Below, one piece after another: positions 15,199 through 33,715 of a stretch of 64,000 nt of DNA. The DNA comes from Minisyncoccia bacterium (GTDB taxonomy: Bacteria > Patescibacteriota > Minisyncoccia > Phycocordibacterales > UBA9973). The notes under the pieces are model-generated. The model was not told where the DNA came from and did not search any database. It worked only from the letters and a program-made list of their open reading frames with translations. Each line of letters opens with the position of its first letter. Within the stretch, counting starts at the first letter, position 1. Location of the stretch: contig JBAQNN010000001.1 in assembly GCA_049303835.1 (NCBI GenBank), positions 1,762 through 65,761 of the forward strand, read 5' to 3'. The translations under genes were made by a program, and so were the position numbers.

Positions 15199-17177
15199 AC
15201 CAATGTATAATCAATTGTTTTTCTTTCTAAATCAATCCCTTTGACTTTTATTTTAACACGGTGTCCGAGACGATATGTTTTTTTCTTTTTTTGCCCGACC
15301 AGCTCCAGTTTCTTTTCATTGAAAACATAAAAATCATCTTCCATGTCTCGCATCCGGACTAGTCCTTCGCACTTTGTTTCTATTTCTTCCACATACATAC
15401 CCCATTCTGTCATACCGCTAACCACTCCATCAAAAATTTTACCCAAACGTTTTCCCATGTATTCTACTTGTTTATATTTGATAGAAGCTCGTTCTGCATC
15501 GGAGGCGCGTTTCTCTTGTTCGGAAGAGACCAGTGCCATCTTTTCATACTCAACAAATTTATCTTTGCTGATTTTCTTCTTCTCCAGATAATTAGAGAGA
15601 AGTCTATGGATCATAATGTCCGGGTATCGTCTGATTGGGGAAGTGAAGTGAGTATAATACTTAAAAGCGAGCCCGTAGTGTCCGATATTTTTTGTGGAAT
15701 AAATTGCTTTGGCCATAGACCTGATCACCGCTCTGTTTACAGTGTCTTCTTCATTTTTTCCCTCCAGACTTTCTAATAATTTGTTTATTTCATGGCTGGG
15801 AATGATACCATCTCGGAGGGATACCTTGTGCCCTAAACTGCGCAAGAAGAATGCCAAGTCAGCCATTTTTTCTTTGCTTGGCAAATCGTGCACTCTGTAA
15901 ATTGATATCCCTTCGTTTTCTTTTGCATTTTTTACACCCCTTCCATTCTTAGGGGAGAGAACTTCTGCCACTTTTTTATTTGCTAGCAACATAAATTCTT
16001 CTATCAATTTATTTGAATCTCCACGTTCTTTTTTTATCACTTTTATAGGCACTCCATTTGCATCCAAGACAAATTTTACTTCGTCTTGTTCTAATGATAT
16101 TGCTCCTTGGGCAAATCTTTCTTTGGTTAATTTTTTTGCTAAATCATTTAAGATAGCTAGCTCTTTGTGTAGAGGAGAGCCTGCTTTTTTTATGGAAATT
16201 TCTGCTTCTTCATAAGTAAATCTTTTTTGTGAATGTATCACTGTCCTACCGAACCATTCACTTTTTACTTTTGCATTTTTATCAATGATAAAAATAGCAC
16301 TCATGGTGAGTCGGTCTTTATTTGGTACCAGACTACACAGGTCGTTGGAAAGAACTTCCGGAAGCATCGGTATAGTTCTATCTACTAAATAAACAGAAGT
16401 TCCTCGTTCGCGTGCTTCAGCATCCAAAGCACTTCCGGGCTTTACATAATAGGAGACGTCGGCGATGTGGATGCCTATTTCATACTCACCGTTTGTGATT
16501 TCCTTGAAAGAAATGGCGTCATCAAAATCCTTGGCATCCGAGGGATCAATGGTGAAGGTCAAAGTTTTTCTCATATCTCTGCGTCCTTCATAATCAGCAC
16601 TTTTTATTCCATCTTGTTTTATTTTTTTGGCCTCAAGCTCTACTTTGTCCGGTAGCTCCGAATCAAAACCTTTTTCTATCGCTATGGCATGCATCTCGGC
16701 ATTGTTGTCGCCCGGTCTGCCCAATATTTTTATTACTTTTCCTTCCGGGGCTTTTCGGGAATCTGCCCAAGAAATTATTTCAACAAAAACTTTTTGTCCC
16801 ATCTTAGCACCATTCAAATACTCTTTTGGAATCAGAATGTCCGTGTACATTTTCGTATCATCCGGCTTTAAGAAAAATATATTGTTTCTTGCCCCGTCTT
16901 TGGCGGGGTCTGTCTCCAGCACTCCGGTAAAACGAGTTTTGGCACGAGAAATAATTTTAGAAACTTCCGCTGTCTGCCGTCCAAATTTTTTGGGATGCAA
17001 GATTATCTCTACCGTATCCCCGTGTAGGGCAGTGCCGAGATGTTTGAAGTCAATTTCTGGGTCTTGGCCCGGTTCTTTAATTCCTTCAATAGCTACGTAT
17101 CCTGTACCTTTAGCTGAAATAGAGATTATGCCCTTTAAGGTAGCTTTATTTTTTAAGTGTTTCATTTTTTTAAGCAT
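15195..17177 (-). CDS. rnr: ribonuclease R (RNB family 3'-5' exoribonuclease)
   Basis: 'RRDMRKTLTFTIDPSDAKDFDDAISF' RNB catalytic motif, N-terminal OB/cold-shock domain, C-terminal S1; 660 aa. Confidence 0.9.
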   Translation of the reverse strand: MLKKMKHLKNKATLKGIISISAKGTGYVAIEGIKEPGQDPEIDFKHLGTALHGDTVEIILHPKKFGRQTAEVSKIISRAKTRFTGVLETDPAKDGARNNIFFLKPDDTKMYTDILIPKEYLNGAKMGQKVFVEIISWADSRKAPEGKVIKILGRPGDNNAEMHAIAIEKGFDSELPDKVELEAKKIKQDGIKSADYEGRRDMRKTLTFTIDPSDAKDFDDAISFKEITNGEYEIGIHIADVSYYVKPGSALDAEARERGTSVYLVDRTIPMLPEVLSNDLCSLVPNKDRLTMSAIFIIDKNAKVKSEWFGRTVIHSQKRFTYEEAEISIKKAGSPLHKELAILNDLAKKLTKERFAQGAISLEQDEVKFVLDANGVPIKVIKKERGDSNKLIEEFMLLANKKVAEVLSPKNGRGVKNAKENEGISIYRVHDLPSKEKMADLAFFLRSLGHKVSLRDGIIPSHEINKLLESLEGKNEEDTVNRAVIRSMAKAIYSTKNIGHYGLAFKYYTHFTSPIRRYPDIMIHRLLSNYLEKKKISKDKFVEYEKMALVSSEQEKRASDAERASIKYKQVEYMGKRLGKIFDGVVSGMTEWGMYVEEIETKCEGLVRMRDMEDDFYVFNEKKLELVGQKKKKTYRLGHRVKIKVKGIDLERKTIDYTLV

Positions 17178-17207
17178 ACCATATAAAGCTAAATTACCAA
17201 ATTTAGC

Positions 17208-17236
17208 TTGACAATCATGTCATAATGTGCTATACT
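17208..17236 (+). promoter_or_regulatory. near-consensus sigma70-type promoter (TTGACA, 17-nt spacer, TATACT) followed by AGGAGG RBS (17246-17251)
   Basis: TTGACA at 17208-17213, TATACT at 17231-17236, Shine-Dalgarno AGGAGG 5 nt before the ATG at 17257. Confidence 0.6.
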
Positions 17237-17256
17237 TGTAGTTAAGGAGGTATACC

Positions 17257-17784
17257 ATGAACTTCAACCGTAGCCTCATCTCGCTCTTCGTCATCATGTT
17301 CGCCCTCGCAACCCTCGTTCTCACCGGCTGCACGACCTCGTTTACCATGTCGTCTATCAACACTCCTGGCGGGCCGATCCAGGCCCACGGGGACGTCACC
17401 GTCGTGGAAAGGACGACGGACACGACGTTCCAGTCCGCCATGTCGGTGGACATGGCCAAGCATCAGGAACGCTTGGCCAAGATACAGGCTCGCGTGGAAA
17501 TCGCGCGGGCCGAGGCCGAGGCGGATGCCGCCAAGGCGAAGGCTCGAGCCGAGAACCCGTGCGCGAGCTGGTTCATGGCCCCCAGCTACTGCTATGGGTA
17601 TAGCGGTGGCGGGGTCGGCTACTACTCGAACGGGTCCGGAGGGAGCAACAGTTACTTCCGGACTGGGGGCGGAAACTACACGAATCCGTCTCGCCGACCC
17701 GGAGGAAGCAATACCTCCTTCGGAGGAGGAAACCCTCCCGGCGGCAACACCGGAGGAAGTGGCAACACCGGAGGGGCGCACTAG
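17257..17784 (+). CDS. lipoprotein (lipobox LTGC), coiled-coil then Gly/Ser/Asn/Tyr-rich tail; encoded in a ~65% GC island
   Basis: Signal peptide 'MNFNRSLISLFVIMFALATLVLTGC'. GC content switches exactly at the start codon. The antisense ORF 17242..17817 is a high-GC shadow. Confidence 0.6.
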   Translation: MNFNRSLISLFVIMFALATLVLTGCTTSFTMSSINTPGGPIQAHGDVTVVERTTDTTFQSAMSVDMAKHQERLAKIQARVEIARAEAEADAAKAKARAENPCASWFMAPSYCYGYSGGGVGYYSNGSGGSNSYFRTGGGNYTNPSRRPGGSNTSFGGGNPPGGNTGGSGNTGGAH

Positions 17785-17788
17785 TCGT

Positions 17789-17868
17789 CCCTCAGCCGAG
17801 CAATGCTCGGCACACACATCAACGACGTCGTTATGGGAAATCCCAAGCGACGTCGTTTTTAATTTGCC
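17789..17868 (+). terminator. GC-rich compound intrinsic terminator (GCCGAGC-AAT-GCTCGGC hairpin, then paired AACGACGTCGTT palindromes, then T-tract)
   Basis: Perfect 7-bp stem at ~17798-17814. Two copies of the palindrome ACGACGTCGT flank a 'GGGAAATCCC' hairpin, followed by TTTTT at 17863-17867. Confidence 0.5.
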
Positions 17869-17897
17869 TTTTTAATAATTTATGTTAAACTCTTTTT

Positions 17898-18206
17898 ATG
17901 TTAAAAATAAGACTTCAGAGAATTGGTAGGAAGAATGACCCGTCGTTTCGGGCCGTTTTGACTGATTCAAAAAACAGTACCAAGAGCGGAAAGTTTTTGG
18001 AAATTTTAGGCACTTACAATCCAAAGGCCGGAGAGAAGAATTTGATGGCTGACAGGATAAAATATTGGATGGGGAAGGGCGCAAAGTGCTCTGACACCAT
18101 GCACAACTTTTTAGTGCACGATAAAGTCATCTCTGGTAAGAAAATAAACGTTTTGCCAAAAAAGAAGCCTACCGTGAAAAGAAAAGAGTTGAAAGCCAAG
18201 AAATAA
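17898..18206 (+). CDS. rpsP: 30S ribosomal protein S16
   Basis: 'MLKIRLQRIGRKNDPSFRAVLTDS...GTYNP' is the canonical S16 N-terminus. Confidence 0.92.
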   Translation: MLKIRLQRIGRKNDPSFRAVLTDSKNSTKSGKFLEILGTYNPKAGEKNLMADRIKYWMGKGAKCSDTMHNFLVHDKVISGKKINVLPKKKPTVKRKELKAKK

Positions 18207-21531: not shown

Positions 21532-22173
21532 TTGTATATGGAAACAGCAGCGGAAGATAATCTATTGGGTGGCACTGTTTTTGATTCTCAGTATTTTAAT
21601 CCAGAATATTTGTTCAATCAGGGGATGATATGGGCTAGAGAATTTATACAGTACATTACTAGCGATCAAGCCATAAATATCGGGAAAACTATCCTCTTCT
21701 TTCTCGCTATGTTTTTTTTGACGATTATTTCTTATGTTATCGTTCGTATGTTGGAAATCAGGAAAAAAGAACATGACCATTTACATCATGAGATACACGA
21801 ATATGCTCACAATAAGGCAGAGTATGAAAAAAGATTGCATGAAGAAGTCGGAGGTTCAAAAAACGAGCATTGGGGGACGGTTTTGAGTTATCTTTTTTCC
21901 CAACACAAGAGCGACTGGAAACTCGCCATCATTGAAGCGGATACCATGTTGGACGGATTGATGGACCAACTCGGTTTTCATGGGGAGAGTTTGGGAGATA
22001 AATTGAAATTGGCCAATCAAGAAAATTTTCCACAACTTACTACTGCTTGGGAGGTGCATACTGTCAGAAATAAGATAGCGCACGAAGGGCTTGCCTTTGA
22101 ACTTTCGCAACATGAAGCAAAAAGAATCATCGCTCTATACGAGCAGATTTTTCATACCTATGGATATATTTAA
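21532..22173 (+). CDS. hypothetical membrane protein (one TM helix, His-rich linker)
   Basis: ORF with TM 'ILFFLAMFFLTIISYVIV'. No recognisable motif. Confidence 0.4.
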   Translation: MYMETAAEDNLLGGTVFDSQYFNPEYLFNQGMIWAREFIQYITSDQAINIGKTILFFLAMFFLTIISYVIVRMLEIRKKEHDHLHHEIHEYAHNKAEYEKRLHEEVGGSKNEHWGTVLSYLFSQHKSDWKLAIIEADTMLDGLMDQLGFHGESLGDKLKLANQENFPQLTTAWEVHTVRNKIAHEGLAFELSQHEAKRIIALYEQIFHTYGYI

Positions 22174-22252
22174 TTTCCAAGTTTGCTTTTTTTACAATTT
22201 AAGGTAAAATTGATAAGTGCCGTAGAAGGCATTTTTTAATGTTTTTTAACAA

Positions 22253-22278
22253 ATAGCGGGGTAGAGAAGAGGCATCTC
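22253..22278 (+). repeat. 26-nt direct repeat: duplicated 5' end (acceptor plus D-arm) of the downstream tRNA(CAT) gene
   Basis: 'ATAGCGGGGTAGAGAAGAGGCATCTC' occurs at 22253-22278 and again at 22337-22362. The upstream copy is followed by an unrelated inverted repeat (TCTCCAAAA...TTTTGGAGA). Confidence 0.7.
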
Positions 22279-22338
22279 CAAAAGGACTAATAGCGCGAAT
22301 AACTTTAAGGTTTTGGAGATTAATGTTTATTGCTTCAT

Positions 22339-22409
22339 AGCGGGGTAGAGAAGAGGCATCTCGTAAGGCTCATAACCTTAAGACTCACGTTCGATTCGTG
22401 ACCCCGCAA
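22339..22409 (+). tRNA. tRNA-Met/Ile2-type (anticodon CAT)
   Basis: Manual fold. Acceptor AGCGGGG/CCCCGCA (1:72 mismatch), D-arm GAGA-AGAGGCA-TCTC, anticodon arm TAAGG-CTCATAA-CCTTA, T-arm TCACG-TTCGATT-CGTGA. No encoded CCA. Confidence 0.7.
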
Positions 22410-22462
22410 CAAGTCCGGCCAAGTGACATGGCATGTCTAATTGTCGGATATAGTGTATAATT

Positions 22463-22535
22463 GTCGGCGTAGCTCAGTTAGTAGAGCACGGGACTCATAA
22501 GCCCGGGGTCGCAGGCGCACTCCCTGCCGCCGACA
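22463..22535 (+). tRNA. GC-rich tRNA with anticodon CAT, unusual D-loop (no GG) and T-loop (CGCACTC, no TTC)
   Basis: Manual fold. Acceptor GTCGGCG/CGCCGAC (perfect 7 bp), D-arm GCTC-AGTTAGTA-GAGC, anticodon arm CGGGA-CTCATAA-GCCCG, T-arm GCAGG-CGCACTC-CCTGC, discriminator A. A 9-nt duplicate 'AATTGTCGG' lies 15 nt upstream. Confidence 0.55.
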
Positions 22536-22561
22536 CCCTCAAAAAAGAGGAAGTGTTTAAA

Positions 22562-22584
22562 GAAAATTGTTTGCGATTGTAGCT
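22562..22584 (+). repeat. direct repeat: duplicated 5' end of tRNA-Asp plus its 5' leader
   Basis: 'AAAATTGTTTGCGATTGTAGCTG' at 22562 and 'AAAATTGTTTGCGATCGTAGCTC' at 22637 (the real tRNA start). Confidence 0.65.
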
Positions 22585-22646
22585 GTTTTGGCTAGTCTAA
22601 AACTAACAGGTCGCGATAGTAGTGTTCTTTGTTTTAAAAATTGTTT

Positions 22647-22720
22647 GCGATCGTAGCTCAACTGGTTAGAGCACTCGCCTGTCACGCGAGAGGTTGGCGG
22701 TTCAAATCCGCTCGGTCGCG
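22647..22720 (+). tRNA. tRNA-Asp (anticodon GTC)
   Basis: Manual fold. Acceptor GCGATCG/CGGTCGC, D-arm GCTC-AACTGGTTA-GAGC, anticodon arm CTCGC-CTGTCAC-GCGAG, T-arm GGCGG-TTCAAAT-CCGCT, discriminator G. Confidence 0.85.
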
Positions 22721-24343
22721 CAACATGAGATTAATTCTCTCAAATGACTTTTGAGCTTTACTGCCATTAGCTTTTTCCAGTTCCCACCCTGCGATAGCGG
22801 CCTCAATGGTATTCTTCTCTTTTGCAATCGGTTTTAGCCATTTCATACTGTCAATACTGAGTATTTTGTCTTTTACCACGCAGTTCCCACCCAGAGCTAA
22901 AAATATTTCTTTTTTAGTTTGAATGTCGCCTGCAATGAATCGTTCTCTGGCTGTTGAAGCAAAATTAAACGTCTTTTCAGTTAATTCTAGCCACTTATCA
23001 GCTCTGTTTTCTGTCTCACGAGCATTTTGTCTGAGTATTGCAATCTGCCCTTTTAGTTTCGTTTTTTCACTCAAAAACTGCTCATCATCAATGAGGTCTC
23101 GGTATCGCATTTGCGTTAATCGATCCAGTTGGCTTTGTGTTTCGTCAAGAGTTTTTTGTTGGGTGTTGGCTACTGCTGTTCTATCGCTGATTTCCTGATC
23201 ATTACTTCTTTTGATTATATCTATGGCCCAGTCTCTGAATTCGGGAGTAATGGTAATTTTTTCAAGTTCAGTTTTTATCTGACCTTCTAGCGATTTGCCG
23301 GTAGTGTAGTTATTTTGGCCACACTTACTACCCTTGTTTCTTCGCATACAATAATAATATTCGAAGGTGGCAAGCTTGCCAGTGCTTTTGATAATTTTCG
23401 TTTTTACAATCGCCGTCATACTTCCACCGCATTCACCGCAACGAATACAGCCAGTGAAAGCATGTTGATGCTTTTGAGGACGAGGCTTGCCTTTTTTGCC
23501 TAGGATTATCTGCGCTTTGTCGAATTCTTCCAGTGTGATCATCGGCTTATGGGTTCCTTCGTGCCATTCTCCTCGATATTTAAACATTCCAGTATAAAAG
23601 GCATTGGAAAAAAGCTCAAAGATACTACTGTGTCCGATTGGACCTTCGCCTCTTTTCTTTGTCTTTCGTGTTCTGAAACCCCAGACATTATTCATCATTT
23701 CAAGTATCTGAGTGGGGGAGTAGGCTTCAGAAAGAAGCATGTCCCAGGCTTTTCTGACTAAATCGAAACGATCTGGATCTACCTTGATGTAATTCTCGCC
23801 TCTGTTTTCGAATTTAGTATTTAAGTAGCCTAGTGGCGCAAGAAGCGGAGCCAGCCCTTTTGCAATCTTGCTGTTCACGCCTCTTCTGACATTTTTCTTC
23901 ATGTCTCGGATAAACTGATTAGCAGATCCAGTTTCAACACTGAGAATAAGGGCATTGTCATCTGGCAAATACTCTCGGCTCATTGTTTGGATTGATTTAA
24001 CAACTTCTTCTTGAAGTAACCATTGAATTGTCCCGCCGTCTACCGGATTGCGTGATAGTCGATTAATTTCCCAACACAAAATACCATCTGCTTCACCCGT
24101 CTTGATTCTTCGTATCATATCTTCAAAAACTTTACGCTTGAATGGTGCTTTTGCTGATTTTGATTCAAAAAGAATATCAACAATGTTAAGACCTTCATCC
24201 TTTGCCAAAATCTTTAAACTATTTATTTGATCGTCGATAGACTGGACCTGCCTTTCCGATGATTCGGAACTTTTTCTAGCATACAGGAAATATTTAATTT
24301 TACTAATTTCATTTTTCATATTATTTTCGATTAAACTTAACAT
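22682..24343 (-). CDS. large serine recombinase (phage-integrase-type resolvase/invertase family)
   Basis: N-terminal 'YLYARKSSESSERQVQSIDDQ' (catalytic Ser context Y-x-R-x-S), recombinase domain, zinc ribbon 'CIRCGECGG...YYYCMRRNKGSKCG', C-terminal coiled-coil. The last 13 codons are antisense to tRNA-Asp positions 22682-22720. Confidence 0.85.
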   Translation of the reverse strand: MLSLIENNMKNEISKIKYFLYARKSSESSERQVQSIDDQINSLKILAKDEGLNIVDILFESKSAKAPFKRKVFEDMIRRIKTGEADGILCWEINRLSRNPVDGGTIQWLLQEEVVKSIQTMSREYLPDDNALILSVETGSANQFIRDMKKNVRRGVNSKIAKGLAPLLAPLGYLNTKFENRGENYIKVDPDRFDLVRKAWDMLLSEAYSPTQILEMMNNVWGFRTRKTKKRGEGPIGHSSIFELFSNAFYTGMFKYRGEWHEGTHKPMITLEEFDKAQIILGKKGKPRPQKHQHAFTGCIRCGECGGSMTAIVKTKIIKSTGKLATFEYYYCMRRNKGSKCGQNNYTTGKSLEGQIKTELEKITITPEFRDWAIDIIKRSNDQEISDRTAVANTQQKTLDETQSQLDRLTQMRYRDLIDDEQFLSEKTKLKGQIAILRQNARETENRADKWLELTEKTFNFASTARERFIAGDIQTKKEIFLALGGNCVVKDKILSIDSMKWLKPIAKEKNTIEAAIAGWELEKANGSKAQKSFERINLMLRDRADLNRQPLA

Positions 24344-24370
24344 AATAATTATAGCACTTTATCTGTGGAG

Positions 24371-26365
24371 CTAGAAAGGCAAATCTTTCTGCTCCGGTGG
24401 TTGTTCTGGTAATTTTGGGGGAGTATTATCAACAACCTTTTTATCTTTTTCGACCTCTAGACCCAAACTGTCAATAAAACTATCAAGTCTAGTTTTAGGA
24501 GTATCCCCAAGATGCCTTGCTTGTTCCAAGGCGCCCACTTCTTTAAGCTGGGCATCTTCGGTGTTGAGGGCACCTTCGGGAAGTTTCCACTCCCAAAAAC
24601 CGTCTTTAAATGAAGAAGATTTTTTTGATTTAATGCCTAATTTTCCACGAGCATCTCTCAATGGTTTCGAGGTAATGCCAATTCTTTGAGCTTCCTTGAT
24701 CGCTTCGTCTGCCTTGGCTGGTCCTTCCGCTAAAAGATCAATCAAAAAATTGACAGCTTCATCGGTGGCAGTGTGTTGCTCTGTTGATTGAGAGAACGCA
24801 AGAGCTTCTTCCGTTGTAATTTCTACTGGTTCAGATTCCCAGGCAATTACGGGTTGTCCATTTTCTGCTTCAACAATAGAATAAGCAAGTCCAGTTTTAT
24901 CTTTTGCGATATTGTTTTTCAAAGGCATCAACAATCGACGCTCTGGATTTTCTTTGTCCTTCGTAACTATATAAGCAGTTCGGACAGCAGCGGTAAAGGC
25001 TAGTGAACCCATAACTCGATACGATGCATTACCTCCACTGTTTTTGTTAAGATGACTTACTAGAACAATCGCGACTTTGTGTTTTGATGCTAGTTCTGCT
25101 AAAGGTGCCAGTAGGCCTCGTATATCAGAATTATTATTACTATCTGCGCTATCCAAATACGCAGATATTGGATCAATAATAACTAGCTTACAATCTGGTA
25201 GGCTAGATAATAAATCTCCAAGCGTTGCGATGTCGCGCTTGAATGAAAACATATGCTGAGTTGATTCACTTTCAGAATCTATTATCTCTTCCTGTATTGC
25301 TTCCACTACGTGAATACGAGCACAGTCAGCCCCTGCTGCTTCAAGACGGGGCTTAATTGTATCCGCTGGATCATCCTCTGCCGATATCAATATTATGTCT
25401 CCAGTTGGAGGTATTGATTGATCAACTGGCCAAGCGTAACCTTTAGAAACATGAGCTGCCAAAGTGGCAGTAACTAGGCTTTTTCCAAGTCCTGGATCTC
25501 CTGCAACCATAGTAAGTTTTCCAAGAGCTATTCGTCCCTGCCATAACCAGCTAATCGGGACCGACTGTATATCAGTAAAGCATTTTACTATGGCTTTACC
25601 TTTACTATATTTTACCTGCGATGTATTTCTTGCTTGTATTTTGTTACTTTGAACATGCAGTCTTTTAATGCTGTCCCAAGTACTCCTTAGTTCTCTGATT
25701 GCAAGAGGTTTTGGATTTTTAGTATTCCAGATTTGCAATTGTTCCCAACCTAAAATCTCCCACAATTCTGAATCCGTAGAACTTAGAATCTTGCCTGCCA
25801 TAGAGGCCGCTGTGTCGTTTCTGGAGCCTTCAGCGACACCATTTTTACCTAATAACCACTTCTTTTCGATCTTTTCTTCTGCATTTGCTGTTTTGGTAAT
25901 CCAAGTTGGCCACTCCGAAAAATCTGAATCAGACGGGGATATTTGCCACTCGTACTCTCCCTTGTCACTTACAGATGGAGCAGCTAAAACATAACCGCCG
26001 TCTCCGCGAATATCTGTTAACTCTTTAACTCTTGTGCCATTTGGAACCTCGTAACCAGGGTGTTTGTAGTAGAGGTGAATCCCATCGCCTCCTGTTTTTG
26101 CTGTAACGGTTGGAGGATAGCCTTGACTGTTTCCACCCTTTTCGATGTCCACCACAACTATGCCAGAAATCTTTCCTGTCACTATTGCAATATTCATCGC
26201 TGGATATTTTTCAATCCACTCCTTAATTTCCTCCGGAGTTGCTCGTTTGTTTTGATACTCCTTCCAGTTGATTAATGGTTTCTTGTCTGCACCGACTGGA
26301 ATCACCGAAAATCCTCTTGCCTCATAATCTAACGCTGAATCTAAAACATTTTTCATATTTTCCAT
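24371..26365 (-). CDS. bifunctional primase-polymerase (Prim-Pol N-terminal domain) fused to AAA_25/RepA-like P-loop ATPase
   Basis: 'RGFSVIPVGADKKPLINWKEYQ' and 'VVVDIEKGG' in the Prim-Pol domain. 'LTMVAGDPGLGKSLVTATLAAH' is a Walker A, with 'ILISAEDD' downstream. Confidence 0.75.
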   Translation of the reverse strand: MENMKNVLDSALDYEARGFSVIPVGADKKPLINWKEYQNKRATPEEIKEWIEKYPAMNIAIVTGKISGIVVVDIEKGGNSQGYPPTVTAKTGGDGIHLYYKHPGYEVPNGTRVKELTDIRGDGGYVLAAPSVSDKGEYEWQISPSDSDFSEWPTWITKTANAEEKIEKKWLLGKNGVAEGSRNDTAASMAGKILSSTDSELWEILGWEQLQIWNTKNPKPLAIRELRSTWDSIKRLHVQSNKIQARNTSQVKYSKGKAIVKCFTDIQSVPISWLWQGRIALGKLTMVAGDPGLGKSLVTATLAAHVSKGYAWPVDQSIPPTGDIILISAEDDPADTIKPRLEAAGADCARIHVVEAIQEEIIDSESESTQHMFSFKRDIATLGDLLSSLPDCKLVIIDPISAYLDSADSNNNSDIRGLLAPLAELASKHKVAIVLVSHLNKNSGGNASYRVMGSLAFTAAVRTAYIVTKDKENPERRLLMPLKNNIAKDKTGLAYSIVEAENGQPVIAWESEPVEITTEEALAFSQSTEQHTATDEAVNFLIDLLAEGPAKADEAIKEAQRIGITSKPLRDARGKLGIKSKKSSSFKDGFWEWKLPEGALNTEDAQLKEVGALEQARHLGDTPKTRLDSFIDSLGLEVEKDKKVVDNTPPKLPEQPPEQKDLPF

Positions 26366-26387
26366 ATAATTTTAATTTAATAATTGC

Positions 26388-26918
26388 TTATAAGTTTCTA
26401 TCCTCCGGTTCGACATAGGACATACCTATCAGCCGGAATAACTCTGCTTCTTCGCGCAGTTCATATTTCTCGCCGTTACGGTATAAGTAACCGCCCGAAC
26501 TATTAAATCCATTTCGGACCCAACCATTCGCTAAAACGTAGTGGCTGTAATCCGCTGAGCCAGTTCTAATTGCCAACACAGATCCCCAATTTCCTTCTTC
26601 TGCAAAGAACAAATCGAGTTTTATTCCTTCCGGTAAAACGCGCTGAGTGTATTTACAGGGAAGTTCTCCTTTAATTTTCTTCCATTTATTAACGACACTA
26701 GCGATGCCATCTTCCAAAAGCCCCACTGAATATGGTTTTGGAATTGCCACGATTTCTATATCTTTGACCTCTGACTTTTGTCTTCGAATACTTCCAGCAA
26801 TTTCAGCGCGTATGCAATACGGCTTCAACTGCTCTAACACTTTTAACGCTATTGCTTGCGCCTCCGCTAAGGGATAGCGTTTTTCTACTACTTCATTTTT
26901 TACATTTTCTTGTTTCAT
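26388..26918 (-). CDS. minimal DNA polymerase beta-like (PolX family) nucleotidyltransferase, palm plus thumb only
   Basis: 'AGSIRRQKSEVKDIEIV' is the GS-x-RR...D-x-D/E Pol-beta signature. Third carboxylate in 'IKLDLFF'. C-terminus 'YVEPEDRNL' resembles the Pol-beta C-terminus '...REPKDRSE'. 176 aa. Confidence 0.65.
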   Translation of the reverse strand: MKQENVKNEVVEKRYPLAEAQAIALKVLEQLKPYCIRAEIAGSIRRQKSEVKDIEIVAIPKPYSVGLLEDGIASVVNKWKKIKGELPCKYTQRVLPEGIKLDLFFAEEGNWGSVLAIRTGSADYSHYVLANGWVRNGFNSSGGYLYRNGEKYELREEAELFRLIGMSYVEPEDRNL

Positions 26919-26943
26919 GTTTTTTATTTTTAAACTAATAATT

Positions 26944-27126
26944 TTATTGACGAGGAGAGTTTTGAGTTAAGTTAGACTCTTTCTCGACTAATGGTTTATA
27001 GACAATAGACACCAATCGCAAAAGCTTCCCGCCTTGATCAAGGGCATCCTCTCTGCTGATATTGATTCCAAAGATTTTTTTATAAAGCTCCTGGAATTTG
27101 GCTATGTCTTTGTCTGATAGGACCAT
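26944..27126 (-). CDS. small hypothetical protein (60 aa)
   Basis: ORF in operon position between PolX and the upstream gene. No motif. Confidence 0.3.
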   Translation of the reverse strand: MVLSDKDIAKFQELYKKIFGINISREDALDQGGKLLRLVSIVYKPLVEKESNLTQNSPRQ

Positions 27127-27303
27127 AATAAGTTTCTTATTTTTAATAAGTGAAACATTTCGACGGTGTTTCAGAAGATCCTTGGATTAAAGGGCCTCTA
27201 TAGATATATGGCGAAATTCACGGTATAGAAAAGCAAAATAAAAAACCTTTACAGATTAAAGGTTTTTTGAGGTTATTTATTAAGAATTTAAAAACTAAAT
27301 TCG

Positions 27304-28374
27304 CTAGTCGTCTTCATCTTCTCTGTACACATCTGGATATTGTTCATTCAAATATTCTTTTATTCCCAGAGGATCATCTTCATCTTCCTTTTCCTCAATA
27401 ACGGTGTTCTTTGATTTTTCTTTTTTAGATTCCACTAAATCTGGTGGTGGAATTAACGTGATTTTTATTCTAAAAGATTCCATTTCTCTTTTTTGATAAG
27501 TGAATTTTTTCATTTTTTTACTGTCGTAGTCTTTATAAGACTCTGTTCTGTTGTAAGGATAAAATGGATCATATTCAATCAAAAAATAATTTTCAAGGAC
27601 TTTCGATAATATTTCTTTCTGTTTTTTGTATGCAGTTTTTGCCTCCGGGTCTCGTATAGTAAGTTCACCGTTTCGTTTTGCTAACACTTTTAAGAACGCC
27701 CAAGCTACGCTTGGTTCAGGATTTTTACCTCGTCCAATAAAACCCATTTCTCTATAAGTGGCAGTACGTTCAAATTTAAATACTTTGATCAAAACACTTT
27801 CTTCATCCAAAAATTTGATAATAAAATTTTCCCATTTTGTCCCCCTGGGTAGCTTGTGTGGAAATCGATATTTCTCTTCTTCCTTGTCATTAATTATTAT
27901 TTCTGGAGAATTTTGTTTCGTTTGAGTAAGTTCTAATGTATTTATTAACCTCCTACCTTCGCCTATTATTTCTTCTATCTCTGGTATCGGGTCTTGCATG
28001 ACAGCTACTGCAAATTCTGAAAGTTCCTTGATTTTACCGTAATTATTAGTAACCTCCTTCCTTGCGTACTCAGCATCTTTACCTTGGTCTTGTAACTCCT
28101 TTTCTGCCACAAGTAAACTTGTAAAAAGTATATAATTCTTTGATAACTCTATTTCCTTTTTGGCTATCATGGCGTCTAAATGTAATTCTTTGACTAATTT
28201 TAGTATAGTTGGCTTCAGTTCGCGTATGTAAAAAATGTTTAAATTCTTAGTTGATGGATGGGTTGGTTTGTTTAAATAATTATAAATAACATCTTTATAT
28301 AATTCATAAATATGTAAAAGGGCGTTGAGTTTTTGCTTTTGTTTTGGCTGTTTAAGATAGGATAAATATGACAT
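27304..28374 (-). CDS. hypothetical protein (356 aa), acidic C-terminus
   Basis: Long ORF with host-like codon usage, divergent from the methyltransferase gene. No recognisable motif. Confidence 0.45.
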   Translation of the reverse strand: MSYLSYLKQPKQKQKLNALLHIYELYKDVIYNYLNKPTHPSTKNLNIFYIRELKPTILKLVKELHLDAMIAKKEIELSKNYILFTSLLVAEKELQDQGKDAEYARKEVTNNYGKIKELSEFAVAVMQDPIPEIEEIIGEGRRLINTLELTQTKQNSPEIIINDKEEEKYRFPHKLPRGTKWENFIIKFLDEESVLIKVFKFERTATYREMGFIGRGKNPEPSVAWAFLKVLAKRNGELTIRDPEAKTAYKKQKEILSKVLENYFLIEYDPFYPYNRTESYKDYDSKKMKKFTYQKREMESFRIKITLIPPPDLVESKKEKSKNTVIEEKEDEDDPLGIKEYLNEQYPDVYREDEDD

Positions 28375-28484
28375 TGTTTTATTGGGATATTTATAAAGCG
28401 GGGGGAAAGTTTTTCCCGTAATTAAATTATAACAGAGATTAACCCTCCTGTGTATCTACTATTGGTTCAATTTTAAAAACTGAC

Positions 28485-29558
28485 TTGCTGCAGATTTTTT
28501 TGTTTCTTGGTATAATATACATAATGCCTAAAATATTAACTACAATTGATCTTTTTGCCGGTATCGGCGGAATCCGTAAAGGATTTGAACGAGCCGGTTT
28601 TGAAACACTCTATGCTTCGGACATAGATAAAGGGTGCAAGGTCACTTATGATGCAAATTATAAAACTACGCCTCTTACTATGGAGAGCATAATTGATATC
28701 GTTCCAAAAACTCTCCCTGATTTTGATGTTTTGCTGTCGGGATTCCCATGCCAATCTTTTTCTATGGCTGGTGGTAAGGCAGGTTTTGCGGACAAGGGAA
28801 GGGGGGATCTCTTTTTTGAAATAATGAAAGTTCTTGAAGTAAAAAAGCCACGTGTGGTATTTCTTGAAAACGTCAAACATCTAGCTAAGCATGATCATGG
28901 CCGTACTTTTATTGTCATAAAAGAGCTTCTTGAGCGTTGTGGTTATTATGTAAAATTTGCAACGATGAACAGTGCTGAATATGGTAATGTTCCGCAAAAT
29001 AGGGACCGTATATATATTGTAGGATTTTTGGATCCAAAGGCTCGTGATGCTTTTGAATTTCCATCTAAAAAAATTCTTAAAAAATCAACTGCTGATTTGT
29101 TGGAAACAGATGTGCTAGAAAAATATTATTATAAAAAAGGCTGGCTATACGATCGCATAAAAGGGCTAGGTATGAAGCAGGGGCTTGTGTATCAATGGCG
29201 TAGGGTTTATTTAAGAGAAAACAAAAGCGGACTCTGTTCTACCTTGACCGCAAATATGGGAATGGGGGGTCATAATGTTCCTTTGATCCGAGACAAAAAA
29301 GGATTGAGGCGACTTACTCCCCGCGAATGTGCTCGTTTACAGGGATTTCCTGATAGTTTTAAATTGCCAGCATCGTTGCCGGATTCTCGTTTATACAAAC
29401 AGATTGGTAATTCTGTAACAATTCCCGTAGTGGAGCGTATCGCTCACAACATTAGCCTTGCGTTAGAGACAGTTGAGAAAACACATAAAGAATACATAAA
29501 TAAAAAATATATTATGAAGCGACACTCTGTAAAACAATTAGCTGAGTTTACTGTTTAA
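28485..29558 (+). CDS. DNA (cytosine-5)-methyltransferase
   Basis: Motif I 'LFAGIGGIRKGF', motif IV 'GFPCQSFSMAG', motif VI 'ENVKHL', motif X 'QIGNSVTIPV'. Confidence 0.9.
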   Translation: MLQIFLFLGIIYIMPKILTTIDLFAGIGGIRKGFERAGFETLYASDIDKGCKVTYDANYKTTPLTMESIIDIVPKTLPDFDVLLSGFPCQSFSMAGGKAGFADKGRGDLFFEIMKVLEVKKPRVVFLENVKHLAKHDHGRTFIVIKELLERCGYYVKFATMNSAEYGNVPQNRDRIYIVGFLDPKARDAFEFPSKKILKKSTADLLETDVLEKYYYKKGWLYDRIKGLGMKQGLVYQWRRVYLRENKSGLCSTLTANMGMGGHNVPLIRDKKGLRRLTPRECARLQGFPDSFKLPASLPDSRLYKQIGNSVTIPVVERIAHNISLALETVEKTHKEYINKKYIMKRHSVKQLAEFTV

Positions 29559-29635
29559 TTTATTAACACATGTCACTTGACAAGTGAGTAGTATGGTATA
29601 AACTATTGTAATAGTATCATGCCCTTGCTAAGGGT

Positions 29636-29869
29636 GTGGTGTATGATAACATGAAAACATTAAAACGCGCTAGATTTGAACGCCTTGCGGTATATCGCAC
29701 GAATGAAGTCCTAAAACGCTTAAAGGTTCTTGGAAATTGTGGTAATCGTAGCGCATATGAATATTCCGAGGAGGAAATAAATAAAATATTTACTGAAATA
29801 GAGCGACACGTTAAAGATGCACGTGCAAAATTTCATTTCCCAAAAGGTCGTAAAGAATTTCATCTATAA
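29636..29869 (+). CDS. small hypothetical protein (77 aa) immediately upstream of the GHKL ATPase gene
   Basis: ORF ends 2 nt before the next start. Basic/helical sequence, possible regulator. Confidence 0.35.
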   Translation: MVYDNMKTLKRARFERLAVYRTNEVLKRLKVLGNCGNRSAYEYSEEEINKIFTEIERHVKDARAKFHFPKGRKEFHL

Positions 29870-29871
29870 AT

Positions 29872-31770: not shown

Positions 31771-32590
31771 AAACATATCATATCCATATCCTGTTCTAGG
31801 CAATGACGATGATGTAGAGGGTAAACTCGACGCTTCTTTTAAACACATGCTCAAGCGAGATAATATAATTCTTAAATCTCGTTTTTCACTGAAAAATAAA
31901 ACTCTCGAAAAACTCATAAAAGAAAAAAAAGCTATATATACAGTGGAAGTAGAATGTCCTAGTACTTTTTTTAGAAAACTTTTTTCTACTTTTGAGCCAG
32001 AGGCAGATTTTGTATTACCTTCAACTATAGTACGAGAACATGTTTCGGTAGGATTTTTTATTCGTGCTACCGACAATATACCAAAATATGAAATAGTTGG
32101 TTGTCATTCTGATTATAAGGGATTTAAGTTTGATGTAGGACCTGGAGATGTTTTGGCGCTTGGTGGATTTACGTCTTTTATTGCAGAAAAAGATTTTGAT
32201 CCAATGCAACCCGCTGTTTCGTCTCTTATTGCAATTAAGCAAGGGAATAATGATACAGGACCCATGGAAATAGATTATTCACAAGACAAAATTTTTATTA
32301 AACTTTCTCATAAAGACCATAAAAACTATTCGCAAATAAAAGGACAAGCAACTATTGCCGGGGTTCTGCATTCTTCTATTGTGTTGCCTGTTTTAACTGA
32401 TGCTATTCGTTTAGTTAATGAAAATAATGAAGAAACACAGGATAGACACTGGTTTCGACGTCTTGAGGTGATTTTACGACAGCAGGAACTTTCAGATGAA
32501 GATCCACTTATTAGCTCACAGAAGATTTTGCGTAGTCCAATAGAACGTTGTTTAGCAGGTCTCGTCGAAACAACCGAAGCGGATGAATAA
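31760..32590 (+). CDS. hypothetical protein (276 aa), translationally coupled to the GHKL ATPase
   Basis: Overlapping start/stop with the upstream gene. No motif recognised. Confidence 0.45.
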   Translation: MKAKNISYPYPVLGNDDDVEGKLDASFKHMLKRDNIILKSRFSLKNKTLEKLIKEKKAIYTVEVECPSTFFRKLFSTFEPEADFVLPSTIVREHVSVGFFIRATDNIPKYEIVGCHSDYKGFKFDVGPGDVLALGGFTSFIAEKDFDPMQPAVSSLIAIKQGNNDTGPMEIDYSQDKIFIKLSHKDHKNYSQIKGQATIAGVLHSSIVLPVLTDAIRLVNENNEETQDRHWFRRLEVILRQQELSDEDPLISSQKILRSPIERCLAGLVETTEADE

Positions 32591-32599
32591 AAAACAAAT

Positions 32600-33391
32600 A
32601 TGACTAATCAAAATATTTTCAAACGGATGTATGTAGCAGAACTTCGAGATAAAATACGAAGCGGAGAATCTTTGTGTGATTATTTTAAAAAAGATGTTGA
32701 ATACCCCATAGAGACTTTAATTCAATCTACAATTAAAACAGATCCAGAGAAACTTAAACTAAAATATCGTGGTAAAAACGAATCAGCAAGTAACGATCTA
32801 GAAAACGCCATAGCTTTATATGAAGCATTTCCAGACTTAACTGAAACACAGGCTTCAGACCCTAGACTTTGGACATATCTTACCCACGTTACCCTGCGAG
32901 ATTATGTATTTGCTAGATGGCCGATCGGAGGTAGTTGTGAACAGATAAAAACTGATAGCAAACAGCAAGCTACTACCATTGATTTTATACTAAGTCACTG
33001 GTTTGCTTCTGGTGGCAACGATCGTTTACTCCGTCGTAACGCAGCAGCTCGTTTATGGTGGCCAGTACATCTCACACATGCTCCATGGTTACGTGAACCA
33101 GAATTTTTTGCAGATTTAAAAACAAATGACCCGTATCGTTTCACAAAAATATTACTTTCAATGGAAAGTATTTATGCAGAGGTGCTTGAACGGGGATTAG
33201 GTCGCGACAACCGTATACTCATAACAGTCTTGGAATTTTTTGAAGCAAACAAAAGTATTAAACGAGAGCAAATTCGTAGTTTTATGAAAGAACTAAATCT
33301 TTTTCTTTCTGTTAGAAATCTCTCTTTATTGTCGAGGAAAGAGATGAAGGAAACAATATTTGATATCGGTAACACAACTCTAAAAGAATAA
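32600..33391 (+). CDS. hypothetical protein (263 aa), Trp/Arg-rich
   Basis: 9-nt gap after the previous gene, same operon. 'RLWTYLTHVTLRDYVFARW' conserved-looking block. No motif recognised. Confidence 0.45.
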   Translation: MTNQNIFKRMYVAELRDKIRSGESLCDYFKKDVEYPIETLIQSTIKTDPEKLKLKYRGKNESASNDLENAIALYEAFPDLTETQASDPRLWTYLTHVTLRDYVFARWPIGGSCEQIKTDSKQQATTIDFILSHWFASGGNDRLLRRNAAARLWWPVHLTHAPWLREPEFFADLKTNDPYRFTKILLSMESIYAEVLERGLGRDNRILITVLEFFEANKSIKREQIRSFMKELNLFLSVRNLSLLSRKEMKETIFDIGNTTLKE

Positions 33392-33701: not shown

Positions 33702-33715
33702 AATTTTATGTTAAG

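Follow-up and report, generated by a model that had tools for sequence, protein, structure and literature searches.

A large serine recombinase gene that ends in the antisense strand of a tRNA-Asp gene in a CPR bacterium

Genes and RNAs at the locus

The window (that is, the whole 64-kb stretch of DNA analysed here) comes from a Parcubacteria-type (CPR) bacterium whose closest relative is a Ca. Nomurabacteria contig, and its features are collected in Table 1. Three tRNA genes form a cluster, one for tRNA-Met (CAT), one for a second tRNA with a CAT anticodon and one for tRNA-Asp (GTC). All three, proposed before from the letters alone, were detected by Rfam, and the first and the third also by ARAGORN; the second has an aberrant T-loop (CGCACTC) compared with the normal TTCGATT of its relatives. 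The cluster is followed, on the opposite strand, by the gene of a large serine recombinase (LSR), whose last 12 codons (RDRADLNRQPLA) and stop are the reverse complement of tRNA-Asp at 22682-22720, the stop TGA being antisense to TCA of the anticodon loop. The sequence-only reading had counted 13 antisense codons; the 12 codons and the stop stand, while the thirteenth (L, TTG) pairs with CAA at 22721-22723, just beyond the tRNA.

Table 1. Features of the window, in order of position.
Feature	Positions	Strand	Remarks
Repeat D1, copy 1: leader and first 24 nt of tRNA-Met 1	22236-22278	+	43 nt, 86%
tRNA-Met (CAT) 1	22339-22409	+	Rfam 54.8 bits, ARAGORN; A1/A72 mismatch
Short duplicate TGTCTAATTGTCGG of the TGTATAAT box and first bases of the second CAT tRNA	22434-22447	+	13/14 match
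Second CAT-anticodon tRNA	22463-22535	+	Rfam 54.2 bits; missed by ARAGORN; T-loop CGCACTC
Pseudo-tRNA-Asp	22563-22615	+	Leader, 5' 23 nt and 3' GGTCGCG kept; middle of the tRNA gone
tRNA-Asp (GTC), intact, host	22647-22720	+	Rfam 69.5 bits, ARAGORN; element target (attB, B arm)
Large serine recombinase	22682-24343	-	553 aa; probable start Met at 24319
attL core, crossover region CGCGCAA	22717-22723		tRNA nt 70-73 plus CAA; left end of the element
Prim-Pol/PriCT/AAA_25 primase-helicase (replication module)	24371-26365	-	Pfam; 89% identical in L001
176-aa Pol-beta-thumb protein (element core)	26388-26918	-	79% identical to copy at 47301-47828
C5 DNA methylase, 632-aa and 276-aa proteins, DUF6339 protein	28485-33391	+	Pfam
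Conserved four-gene module (77, 180, ~57, 107 aa)	33468-34749	-	Homologues in L001, L019
LOOT RNA (RF03000)	35067-35183	+	82.2 bits
Earlier candidate attR	35208-35226	+	8-nt match, not above chance
Second large serine recombinase, uninterrupted ORF	42789-44468	-	36% identical to the first
Second copy of the four-gene module	61773-63207	-
Second LOOT RNA	63520-63641	+

The assignment of the enzyme to the serine recombinases, already made from the sequence and a minority arrangement at a tRNA gene, is borne out by its Pfam domains, namely Resolvase (PF00239, the catalytic domain, at residues 19-163, E = 9e-15), Recombinase (PF07508, 192-281) and Zn_ribbon_recom (PF13408, 296-360). The motif R15-S17, the RLSRN motif and the zinc-ribbon cysteines C294, C297, C324 and C333 are invariant in the family alignment (A1). 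A search of solved structures with the single sequence gave no match and the family profile was needed, which matches the recombinases SPbeta SprA, A118 and TP901-1 (the catalytic domains of TP901-1, TnpX and SprA, and the C-terminal domain of the A118 integrase, 4kis). As the profile match ends at 474 of 546, the last ~70 residues, tail included, are family-specific. Enzymes of this class recombine a short attP with a short attB, the crossover being of 2 bp, and need no long homology. No domain of the Phage_integrase type was found by Pfam in the 20 long ORFs scanned between 20091 and 50862, where the two serine enzymes are the only recombinases. Exact-protein look-ups of the window recombinase (with two starts), GatA and a 195-aa protein matched no contig, and the protein search with the recombinase gave 4591 homologues at E <= 1e-20.

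The site corresponds to attL, the left junction of an element that is integrative, plasmid-like and not phage-like. It comprises the recombinase, a Prim-Pol/AAA_25 primase-helicase, a small Pol-beta-like protein, the four-gene module, a LOOT RNA and variable cargo, such as the plus-strand block at 28485-33391, which has no DNA match in the relative L001 and hence varies between relatives. The LOOT RNA at 35067-35183 is probably part of the element; LOOT also lies within the elements of L016, L017 and L018. Searching PHROGs with the 10 element proteins to which Pfam assigned no function revealed no phage proteins, so the element is not a prophage. Neither a second Resolvase domain nor ParB or Mom was detected by Pfam in the 9 of 13 ORFs of at least 60 aa that were covered in the first element (22682-34749).

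The boundary at tRNA-Asp and the partial tRNA copies

Three related loci in which the recombinase is absent (L003, L004 and L005) carry a tRNA-Asp identical to that of the window (74/74) and share with it the order gatA, 213-aa gene, tRNA-Met, tRNA-Met, after which the downstream DNA is unrelated; the homology of the window to them stops at 22721-22723. Two of them, L003 and L004, carry element relics and are not pristine empty sites; L005 alone looks clean and belongs to a different species, with a gatA region ~68% identical. Since the tRNA is identical, the upstream genes are the same and the similarity ends at 22721-22723, the entire tRNA is host DNA. The comparison with L001, which has a recombinase 96% identical to that of the window, gives 150/156 identical positions up to the core and 18/24 within the tRNA, the differences there including compensatory stem changes.

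These comparisons show that the element entered a chromosomal tRNA-Asp (GTC) gene at its 3' terminus and left it intact, and they place the crossover within the core GCGCAA, that is, tRNA nt 71-73 plus a 3-nt trailer; the same core is present at both junctions of L018. A crossover within GCGCAA implies that the tRNA was neither split nor rebuilt and that the duplication is no longer than ~7 nt. Judged from the aligned loci, it is the host tRNA that supplies the last codons of the recombinase and not the reverse.

The proposal of an integrating element at tRNA-Asp is thereby supported. The sequence-only reading had gone further, likening the site to one where the element brings in the 3' portion of the tRNA, with a weak possible attR remnant at ~35208; as a model, this would put the crossover inside tRNA-Asp near the anticodon loop and the displaced host half near 35208. 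An integrase beside a tRNA gene and reading towards it does have the look of a classical tDNA island, and the serine recombinase of the Dehalococcoides ssrA islands uses a 20-bp repeat of the 3' end of its target (PMC3146451). Nonetheless, the relatives without the recombinase have the identical tRNA and put the boundary at its 3' tip, not inside it; identity to L001 is 96% up to the tRNA end and 75% from exactly there on, with the compensatory changes mentioned; the junctions of L018 share TGCGC only; and homologues with an uninterrupted ORF (see below) indicate that attP carries DNA coding for LVDDVRT, not half a tRNA. A displaced fragment is also missing: a 16-mer search allowing 2 mismatches found no other piece of tRNA-Asp in the 64-kb window, and the supposed attR remnant at 35208-35226 is an 8-nt match at chance level just 3' of the LOOT RNA, lying between it and a TTGACA/TATAAT-like hexamer pair upstream of a 1801-aa gene. 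A crossover within the tRNA, already largely refuted, is very improbable.

Each of the three tRNA genes had further been described as preceded, at 50-85 nt, by a repeat of its own 5' end. Of these repeats, the two long ones are real and far above chance: 22236-22278 versus 22320-22362 (D1, 43 nt at 86%, containing the 26-nt exact core reported before, and with a conserved block that reaches ~22302) and 22563-22595 versus 22637-22669 (33 nt at 82%). The short one, 22434-22447 versus 22454-22467 (14 nt at 93%), is spaced 20 nt, outside the range described; it is missing from L005 and is probably a real 20-nt tandem duplication. The first 50 nt of the D1 copy are identical in L005 (50/50), decayed in L004 and absent from L003, and the pseudo-tRNA-Asp is found in the window and not in L003-L005. 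Scanning 22100-22800 with the sigma-70 consensus found no promoter.

Had earlier integrations by this or similar recombinases left these copies as att remnants, as the idea of scars of repeated recombination supposed, one would expect the indels that vary between relatives and a cluster which in relatives is an insertion hotspot, and both are seen. However, a recombinase whose cut lies at the 3' tip and whose duplication does not exceed 7 nt cannot have made repeats of the 5' end; the copies hold leader and 5' end, not 3' end, and the 50/50 identity of the tRNA-Met fragment between window and L005 speaks for constraint or gene conversion more than for a decaying scar. An origin as att remnants is thus quite improbable; the partial 5' copies, which are not products of the window's recombinase, look like lineage-variable local duplications or pseudo-tRNA relics.

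As a separate observation, the tRNA cluster is a hotspot that attracts several kinds of selfish insertions: in relatives it contains LAGLIDADG genes, a 208-nt intervening sequence within tRNA-Asp and an insertion flanked by a 40-nt repeat of the 3' end of tRNA-Met.

Recombinase tails, the attachment site and the right end

The antisense overlap with a tRNA recurs in 10/10 integrated loci examined, window included: the recombinase ends in antisense tRNA-Asp in the window, L001, L002, L012, L015, L016, L018 and L019, and in antisense tRNA-His in L017 and L007. At least 62 of the 120 best homologues terminate in D[LS]N[PR], the signature of an antisense T-loop, and ~17 more variants were recognised by eye. 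The recombinase always enters the 3' end of the tRNA in the same frame, the last codon before the tRNA being W if the DNA encodes CCA and L if it encodes CAA, and the antisense tails range from 2 to ~18 codons among relatives (RG and a stop in L001 and L002, 12 codons in the window). About 10% of the homologues end instead in a conserved native tail, so that the uninterrupted protein reads ...LR/(G or D)LVDDVRT(x8-12)IYIP..., the slash marking here and below the point of divergence. The two kinds interleave, with up to 94% identity between them, and diverge exactly at LR/.

Both junctions are visible in L018, whose recombinase is 54% identical to that of the window. Its attL reads CCC TTA GTG CGC/AGC GGA CGG GAC TCG AAC (LVR/SGRDSN..., antisense tRNA-Asp), and its attR, 10.4 kb off on the same strand, consists of a terminator hairpin followed by CTG CGC/GAC CTA GTG GAC GAT GTT AGA ACC, translated as LR/DLVDDVRTEFEHKNDSALYIP, an orphaned native tail. 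TGCGC alone is common to the two, and the attP reconstructed from them shows imperfect dyad symmetry. A body fused to tRNA antisense at attL and a native tail at attR mean that attP lies inside the ORF and that integration gives the protein another C-terminus. In L013 the ORF is uninterrupted and followed by convergently oriented genes, the last of which is homologous (35% over 120 aa) to a ResIII gene that L016, an integrated element, has in its cargo block. In L003 and L004, tRNA-Asp has orphan tail fragments downstream of it, oriented as at an attR, and one of these adjoins CGCG and hairpins homologous to the DNA that follows the tRNA in L003. On these junctions, attP is shown to lie within the 3' end of the recombinase ORF in relatives. 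In the subfamily closest to the window (C-terminus ...INLMLR) no native-tail exemplar was found; DNA-pattern scans for its form of attP returned zero hits, then 18 chance hits without a recombinase. Scans of viral contigs gave two distant relatives only, L006 (native tail) and L007 (overlapping tRNA-His), and no attR was found in L016 between the cargo and the tRNA-Phe/tRNA-Arg genes.

The explanation that we consider probable is thus an insertion at the 3' tip of tRNA-Asp by an element whose attP lies in the recombinase ORF, so that the C-terminus is exchanged on integration. As the relatives show, integration cuts the ORF at LR/ and leaves the body at attL, from where it reads on into the antisense tRNA strand to the first stop (in the window, after 12 codons, in the anticodon loop), and the native tail fragment stays behind at attR. 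The recombinase gene would end by reading backwards through a tRNA because the attachment site lies in the gene itself. The element of the window presumably arrived by the same route as its relatives; if so, integrated and excised copies should make recombinases with different C-termini. Excision by serine integrases is controlled by a separate recombination directionality factor (RDF); RDFs are not known to share a sequence signature. The tail swap may bias the enzyme towards integration or excision, and it could equally be neutral. A full state switch, in which an episomal LVDDVRT...IYIP isoform and a tRNA-dictated one would differ in directionality or activity as a control independent of an RDF, with the conserved peptide motifs ALRP and VDDV doubling, in one frame, as the two attP half-sites and with LOOT as a component of the element, is a doubtful idea.

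At the right end of the first element, tblastn with nine tails, six-frame reading and regular expressions in the window, L001, L002 and L019 gave nothing convincing, either as a native-tail fragment or as a GCGC/TGCGC core, and the split of the ORF is therefore documented in relatives, not in this copy. No palindromic partner of the recombinase-side half-site was found. Two candidates were discarded: AAGGCTCAAAA at 34968 as half-site partner (a weak match, at chance level) and 35172-35182 (TCGCAAGAG) as a site like the attB of L005, which is the conserved GCAA loop region of LOOT and occurs in both LOOT copies. Might the copy in the window be a fixed fossil, with a right junction decayed or deleted, no excision and a tail without regulatory meaning? 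The lack of an attR core or tail fragment in 34846-35250 would fit, as would the spread of tails from 2 to ~18 codons among relatives, which argues against selection on the tail. Against it, the recombinase ORF is intact and, as said, close to that of L001, the replication module is intact too, and the true right end may lie farther right, possibly at the CGCGCAA at 42881; LOOT being inside the element in relatives, it is there that the end may have to be sought. We take the fossil to be possible, if somewhat unlikely.

The tail of the second recombinase is native (LLDDVRTAFELVNDTTIYIP, 42804-42884), and the core CGCGCAA lies at 42881-42887. Of the proteins looked up, this recombinase alone has an exact counterpart on record: L014 is 100% identical to the window over 42198-46976, and SRR28062879 contains a 4.8-kb stretch 100% identical to it. 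The DNA at 61773-63641 is probably the far part of this second element; in the hairpin region beside it (42200-42290), no tRNA-like RNA was detected by Rfam at E <= 5. A tandem array is a possible, if somewhat unlikely, reading, with element 1 spanning 22724-42887 and abutting element 2, and with the second recombinase composed of the body of element 2 and the tail of element 1. The two elements have the same architecture, CGCGCAA occurs at both 22717 and 42881, the cargo of relatives lies between LOOT and attR (the 1801-aa surface-protein block would then be cargo), and an equivalent case has been described for tandem Dehalococcoides islands by McMurdie et al. (PMC3146451). Yet the recurrence of the core is not independent evidence, because the conserved L-R-G codons dictate it; the tail-side half-site from 42888 fits the body side of recombinase 2 (12/21) better than that of recombinase 1 (9/20); and after the tail comes a 159-aa gene in the same direction, not seen at the other loci examined.

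With insertion at the 3' tip, the natural reading of an integrase next to a tRNA is corrected: what gets rewritten is the integrase gene, and the tRNA stays as it was. Antisense-T-loop tails and orphan LVDDVRT fragments could provide a simple call of integrated versus free copies in metagenomes, where the same marks could also date serial insertions. LSRs are genome-engineering tools, and a clade whose attB sites are small and predictable, at the 3' ends of tRNA genes, and which may encode a directionality cue of its own, could be useful. In addition, the orphan LOOT RNA gains a genomic home.

Comparison with known systems

The serine integrases of phages and ICEs (SPbeta SprA, A118/LI Int, TP901-1 Int and TnpX) have the same domain architecture as the LSR of the window. 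Large serine integrases that are well studied have protein-coding genes as their targets, and their attP lies outside the int ORF. An attP within the int gene is a property of the SSV-type integrases, archaeal tyrosine recombinases that target a tRNA gene and whose gene is partitioned by integration into two large parts and inactivated, whereas the family of the window exchanges only ~27 C-terminal residues.

In classical tDNA islands (Islander database, PMC4383910), a tyrosine integrase is used, the split target is restored by a 3' fragment borne by the element and the displaced tRNA fragment marks the far end. The integrase gene adjoins the tRNA gene at the island edge in both cases, but the window has neither a restoring nor a displaced fragment, and its enzyme is a serine recombinase. 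The tycheposons of Prochlorococcus (Hackl et al., bioRxiv 10.1101/2020.12.28.424599) are likewise small tRNA-associated elements with an integrase, a primase/helicase module and variable cargo; 27/937 of them carry a large serine recombinase, and they integrate serially at one tRNA, pushing older elements outwards. That likeness, serial integration included, is one of organisation only: tycheposons have mostly tyrosine recombinases, flanking partial copies of the tRNA and cyanobacterial hosts, the element of the window has no flanking partial tRNA repeats as att sites, and the text searched contains no description of a recombinase reading through into the tRNA.

The one published precedent, and the closest system, is that of the Dehalococcoides ssrA islands with their CcrB-like serine recombinase DsiB (McMurdie et al. 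2011, BMC Genomics 12:287, PMC3146451). There too an LSR lies at the island edge by attL and reads towards a tRNA-like gene, its ORF overlapping attL and its stop falling beyond the island, on the strand antisense to the target; tandem islands are found, and the authors suggest that a complete gene exists only in the circular form or where another island adjoins (PMC3146451). The DsiB target is the tmRNA (ssrA), with insertion in the T-loop and a 20-bp direct repeat of the target 3' end, whereas the family of the window uses tRNA-Asp or tRNA-His, with the crossover at the extreme 3' tip and a shared core of 5-7 nt. Besides DsiB, the islands encode a second, small serine recombinase (DsiA) together with ParB and Mom, where the element of the window has its Prim-Pol/AAA_25 module instead, and they are found in hosts of another phylum. 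That work reports neither a conserved native tail nor orphan fragments of one (PMC3146451). What appeared to be an oddity of Dehalococcoides, a serine recombinase ORF that spans attP and reads into its RNA-gene target, proves to be widespread in bacteria of the candidate phyla radiation.

The junction between element 1 and the host tRNA-Asp

The overlap between the tRNA cluster and the large serine recombinase of element 1, an integrative element at tRNA-Asp, is real, as the sequence-only reading had noticed. The last 12 codons of the recombinase (RDRADLNRQPLA), together with its TGA stop, lie antisense to tRNA-Asp and cover it from the 3' end to the anticodon loop; the thirteenth codon counted in that reading, the Leu preceding these residues, is antisense to the CAA just 3' of the tRNA and not to the tRNA itself. 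Homologues in the protein search begin at the ninth residue of the ORF, which puts the likely start at 24319, and the family profile gives matches to large serine recombinases of solved structure (SPbeta SprA, A118 integrase and TP901-1 integrase).

The same reading had proposed that the element supplied the 3' portion of tRNA-Asp, and comparison with relatives points the other way. Scanning metagenomes for the last 42 nt of tRNA-Asp retrieved three contigs (L003, L004 and L005) that share with the window the gene order gatA, 213-aa gene, tRNA-Met, tRNA-Met, tRNA-Asp, and whose tRNA-Asp, identical to that of the window at 74 of 74 positions, has no adjoining recombinase; their similarity to the window ends at 22721-22723, past the intact tRNA. 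The nearest relative of the element, on a Ca. Nomurabacteria contig (L001) with a 96% identical recombinase, matches the window at 150 of 156 nt through TGCGCG and at only 18 of 24 inside the tRNA, the differences there being compensatory stem changes, and no second tRNA-Asp fragment was found within the 64-kb window. The point where similarity to L003-L005 stops, the break in identity with L001 and the absence of a second fragment together indicate that the whole tRNA-Asp is chromosomal. These alignments show that the element sits at the 3' tip of a host tRNA-Asp that is itself intact and starts within GCGCAA (tRNA nt 71-73 plus CAA), and that the recombinase ORF spans the element/host junction. 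The direction is the opposite of that first proposed: the recombinase takes its end from the host tRNA, and the tRNA gets nothing from the element. The earlier mechanism is wrong in this central point, and the corrected one is well supported by the comparative evidence.

Overlap of this kind is common to the entire recombinase family. The protein search gave 4591 homologues at E <= 1e-20, the few named ones being from Parcubacteria-type CPR bacteria. At least 62 of the best 120 carry the C-terminus ...R(G/D/E)R.D(L/S)N(P/R)..P.., the peptide that results when the T-loop, universally conserved as GTTCRAATC, is translated from its antisense strand in a specific frame; about 17 more have variants of this signature (ESNP, DSNP, ESDP), as judged by eye, and about 26 end within a few codons of the junction, like those of L001 and L002 (RG, then stop). 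The register of the recombinase against the tRNA is constant (the codon preceding the tRNA is W if CCA is encoded and L if CAA is encoded), and a tRNA gene lies beneath the recombinase 3' end in every integrated relative with readable DNA, be it tRNA-Asp (L001, L002, L012, L015, L016, L018 and L019) or tRNA-His (L017 and L007). The majority of these relatives occupy the same ligA-gatCA-tRNA locus.

An attachment site within the recombinase gene

A different, conserved C-terminus, ...LR(G/D)LVDDVRT(x8-12)IYIP..., is found in about 11 of the best 120 homologues, in the second recombinase of the window and in L006, a 40%-identical IMG/VR relative. Forms with this native tail are interspersed with tRNA-tailed ones at up to 94% identity (homologues P0021 and P0011), and they diverge exactly after ...LR. 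At the DNA level (slashes mark the junction), P0021 reads TTG CGC/GAC TTA GTG AAC GAA GTT AGA, and P0014, 89% identical to it, reads TTG CGC/AGC GGA CGA GAC TTG AAC, which is antisense tRNA-Asp. Both junctions of one integrated element are visible in L018, a 664-kb scaffold: at the left one (attL) the recombinase body continues into tRNA-Asp (...PLVR/SGRDSNPQPPA, then stop), and at the right one (attR), on the same strand at a distance of 10.4 kb, a terminator hairpin is followed by CTG CGC/GAC CTA GTG GAC GAT GTT AGA ACC..., that is, LR/DLVDDVRTEFEHKNDSALYIPILSLP. The two have only TGCGC in common, and joining the attL body to the attR piece gives a full-length native recombinase ORF. Such alignments show that, in relatives, the attachment site of the free element falls within the recombinase ORF and the native C-terminal ~27 residues are left behind at the other junction. 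The contig of P0021 (L013) holds an uninterrupted native-tail ORF and then four convergently oriented genes; the last of these is truncated where the contig stops and shares 35% identity over 120 aa with a ResIII gene in the cargo block of the integrated element L016, a layout expected from circular permutation of such an element.

Orphan native-tail fragments (RNLVDDVRT, RDLVDGVRT, RGLVDEVRTAIRQHKGYIYIPDL) also lie downstream of tRNA-Asp in L003 and L004, on the opposite strand, in the orientation expected for old attR sites, and one of them adjoins CGCG and two hairpins homologous to the DNA directly 3' of tRNA-Asp in L003. These fragments are probably relics of earlier attR junctions and look like the result of serial integrations. 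The reconstructed site of the free element (attP) has dyad symmetry, CTTCGTYC...TGCG/CGGAC...GGACGATG, so that the conserved peptide motifs flanking the junction double as the two half-sites.

Element contents, right end and tRNA cluster

The core of element 1 reads leftwards on the minus strand, from the recombinase to the Prim-Pol/PriCT/AAA_25 and then the Pol-beta-thumb protein; PHROGs detected no phage proteins among the 10 element proteins lacking a Pfam-assigned function that were scanned. Element 2, related to it and provisionally extending over 42198-63641, has the same architecture, and the Logan contig L014 is identical (100%) to window 42198-46976; the strain is present in the source sample, SRR28062879. 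The identity between the Pol-beta-thumb proteins of the two elements (79%), against 36% for the recombinases and 23% for the primase-helicases, suggests that this module has been exchanged.

Features of the two elements, the tRNA cluster and related loci (window positions unless a contig is named)
Feature	Position	Strand	Remarks
tRNA-Met (CAT) 1	22339-22409	+	Rfam
Second CAT tRNA	22463-22535	+	Rfam; missed by ARAGORN
tRNA-Asp (GTC)	22647-22720	+	Rfam
Large serine recombinase ORF, 553 aa	22682-24343	-	Resolvase, Recombinase and Zn_ribbon_recom domains
Prim-Pol/PriCT/AAA_25 protein	24371-26365	-	element 1 core
176-aa Pol-beta-thumb protein	26388-26918		element 1 core
Gene block: C5 methylase, DUF6339 protein		+	element 1, beyond Pol-beta-thumb gene
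Four-gene module	33468-34749		element 1
LOOT RNA (RF03000)	35067-35183		probably element 1
Serine recombinase	42789-44468		element 2; 36% identical to that of element 1; uninterrupted native tail
AAA_25 primase-helicase			element 2; 23% identical to that of element 1
175-aa protein	47301-47828		element 2; 79% identical to Pol-beta-thumb protein of element 1
Metal-handling block: DUF302/YHS, DUF305, ICMT-like, P-type ATPase	59452-61698 (ATPase)	+	element 2
Four-gene module, second copy	61773-63207		element 2; followed by LOOT RNA
LOOT RNA 2	63520-63641		element 2
LOOT RNAs in relatives	L016 6367-6491; L017 4604-4736; L018 4447-4562
Orphan native-tail fragment	L003 2780-2815	-	encodes R.LVD.VRT...; genome without recombinase
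Orphan native-tail fragments	L004 282-362 and 764-802	+	encode R.LVD.VRT...; genome without recombinase
LAGLIDADG homing-endonuclease-like ORF	L002 11671-12390; L015 11875-12483 (-)		directly upstream of tRNA-Asp
Interrupted tRNA-Asp	L015 11884-11603	-	5' exon 11884-11849, 3' exon 11640-11603

Each of the five LOOT matches falls within an element of this recombinase family or at its border, where it is divergent from the core genes and heads the cargo block, and the host flanks of the scanned loci gave no match; LOOT RNAs may be carried by the elements. Since it lies within the elements of L016, L017 and L018, between core and cargo, and beside both four-gene modules of the window, the first LOOT RNA of the window probably belongs to element 1.

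Homology of element 1 stops near 34846 with L001 and near 35013 with L019. The attR remnant formerly proposed at 35208-35226 matches over just 8 nt, lies between the LOOT RNA and the DNA immediately upstream of a 1801-aa surface-protein gene, and has to be abandoned; no attR core or tail fragment was found between 33300 and 42600. The next CGCGCAA, at 42881, lies inside the uninterrupted second recombinase ORF, and element 1 may reach 42887, in tandem with element 2, the junction restoring a full recombinase ORF in the way McMurdie et al. (PMC3146451) proposed for Dehalococcoides; the tail-side half-site there resembles the body-side one of the second recombinase (12/21) more than that of the first (9/20), which speaks mildly against this. 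It is also possible that the right junction has decayed, or that the subfamily of element 1 (...INLMLR) has a short tail that escapes recognition.

The three direct repeats described in front of the tRNAs exist (43 nt at 86%, with 26 nt exact; 14 nt at 93%; 33 nt at 82%; spacings of 84, 20 and 74 nt), but they cannot be scars of the serine recombinase, because this enzyme works at the 3' end of the tRNA, where it duplicates no more than a few bases. Aligned with L003-L005, the fragment of the first tRNA-Met is present in the window and L005, decayed in L004 and absent in L003; the window alone has a pseudo-tRNA-Asp (5' 23 nt plus 3' GGTCGCG), whose leader resembles the L005 spacer, that of the real tRNA-Asp resembling the L003/L004 spacer; and the 20-nt duplication before the second CAT tRNA is absent from L005. 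Given this patchy occurrence, the 5' copies are lineage-variable indels, for which local duplication or relics of other insertions at the cluster are the likeliest origins. Relatives do carry other insertions there: the LAGLIDADG ORF of L002 and L015, whose last codons overlap the 5' end of tRNA-Asp and whose stop is the TAG of GTAGCTC in the D-arm; a 208-nt intervening sequence in the anticodon loop of the L015 tRNA-Asp, a gene missed by ARAGORN and without a group I intron by Rfam at the gathering threshold; and a GC-rich insert of ~140 nt between 40-nt direct repeats of a tRNA-Met 3' end and trailer (L015 ~12780-12600). In L002 (~12610-12540), the tRNA-Met 3' end and its inverted copy make a long hairpin.

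Three further observations concern the window. The first 50 nt of the tRNA-Met fragment (22253-22302) are 100% identical between the window and L005, against ~80% for the flanking intergenic DNA and ~68% for the gatA region, an unexpected conservation past the 26 nt common to the tRNA. The second CAT tRNA has CGCACTC as its T-loop where L003-L005 have the normal TTCGATT, a loss of the canonical T-loop seen only in the window genome, and may be a decaying or unusual tRNA. Window 17001-18000 has a GC of 0.51 (0.30-0.44 in the rest) and no Rfam match at the gathering threshold.

Probable tail exchange and known systems

Judging from its relatives, the element of the window would have integrated by recombining a core within the recombinase ORF with the GCGCAA that ends the tRNA, so that a free copy would encode a native-tail recombinase and an integrated copy a tail-swapped one. 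An influence of this swap on directionality is speculative. The tRNA-derived tails are 2 to ~18 residues long among recombinases, which argues against selection on the new tail itself; the loss of the native tail, as distinct from the new one, could nevertheless have an effect.

Neither of the two features that define classical tyrosine-integrase tDNA islands (PMC4383910) is seen in this element. Tycheposons (bioRxiv 10.1101/2020.12.28.424599) resemble it in their tRNA-adjacent integrase, primase-helicase, cargo and serial integration, and a small number of them have a large serine recombinase; unlike it, they are defined by partial tRNA flanks. No prior description of the recombinase/tRNA arrangement in CPR bacteria was found in the literature searched, whose coverage is incomplete; an arrangement of this kind, described once before, in Dehalococcoides, proves to be widespread in CPR bacteria, and it would gain importance should the exchange of tails turn out to govern directionality. 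That closest precedent, the Dehalococcoides ssrA genomic islands with the recombinase DsiB (PMC3146451), has its insertion point in the T-loop of tmRNA, shows a 20-bp repeat and includes DsiA, ParB and Mom, and its authors considered that the island recombinase might be fully functional only on the circle. In contrast, the system described here targets the extreme 3' end of tRNA genes through a core of 5-7 nt, and has a Prim-Pol replication module and a conserved native tail.
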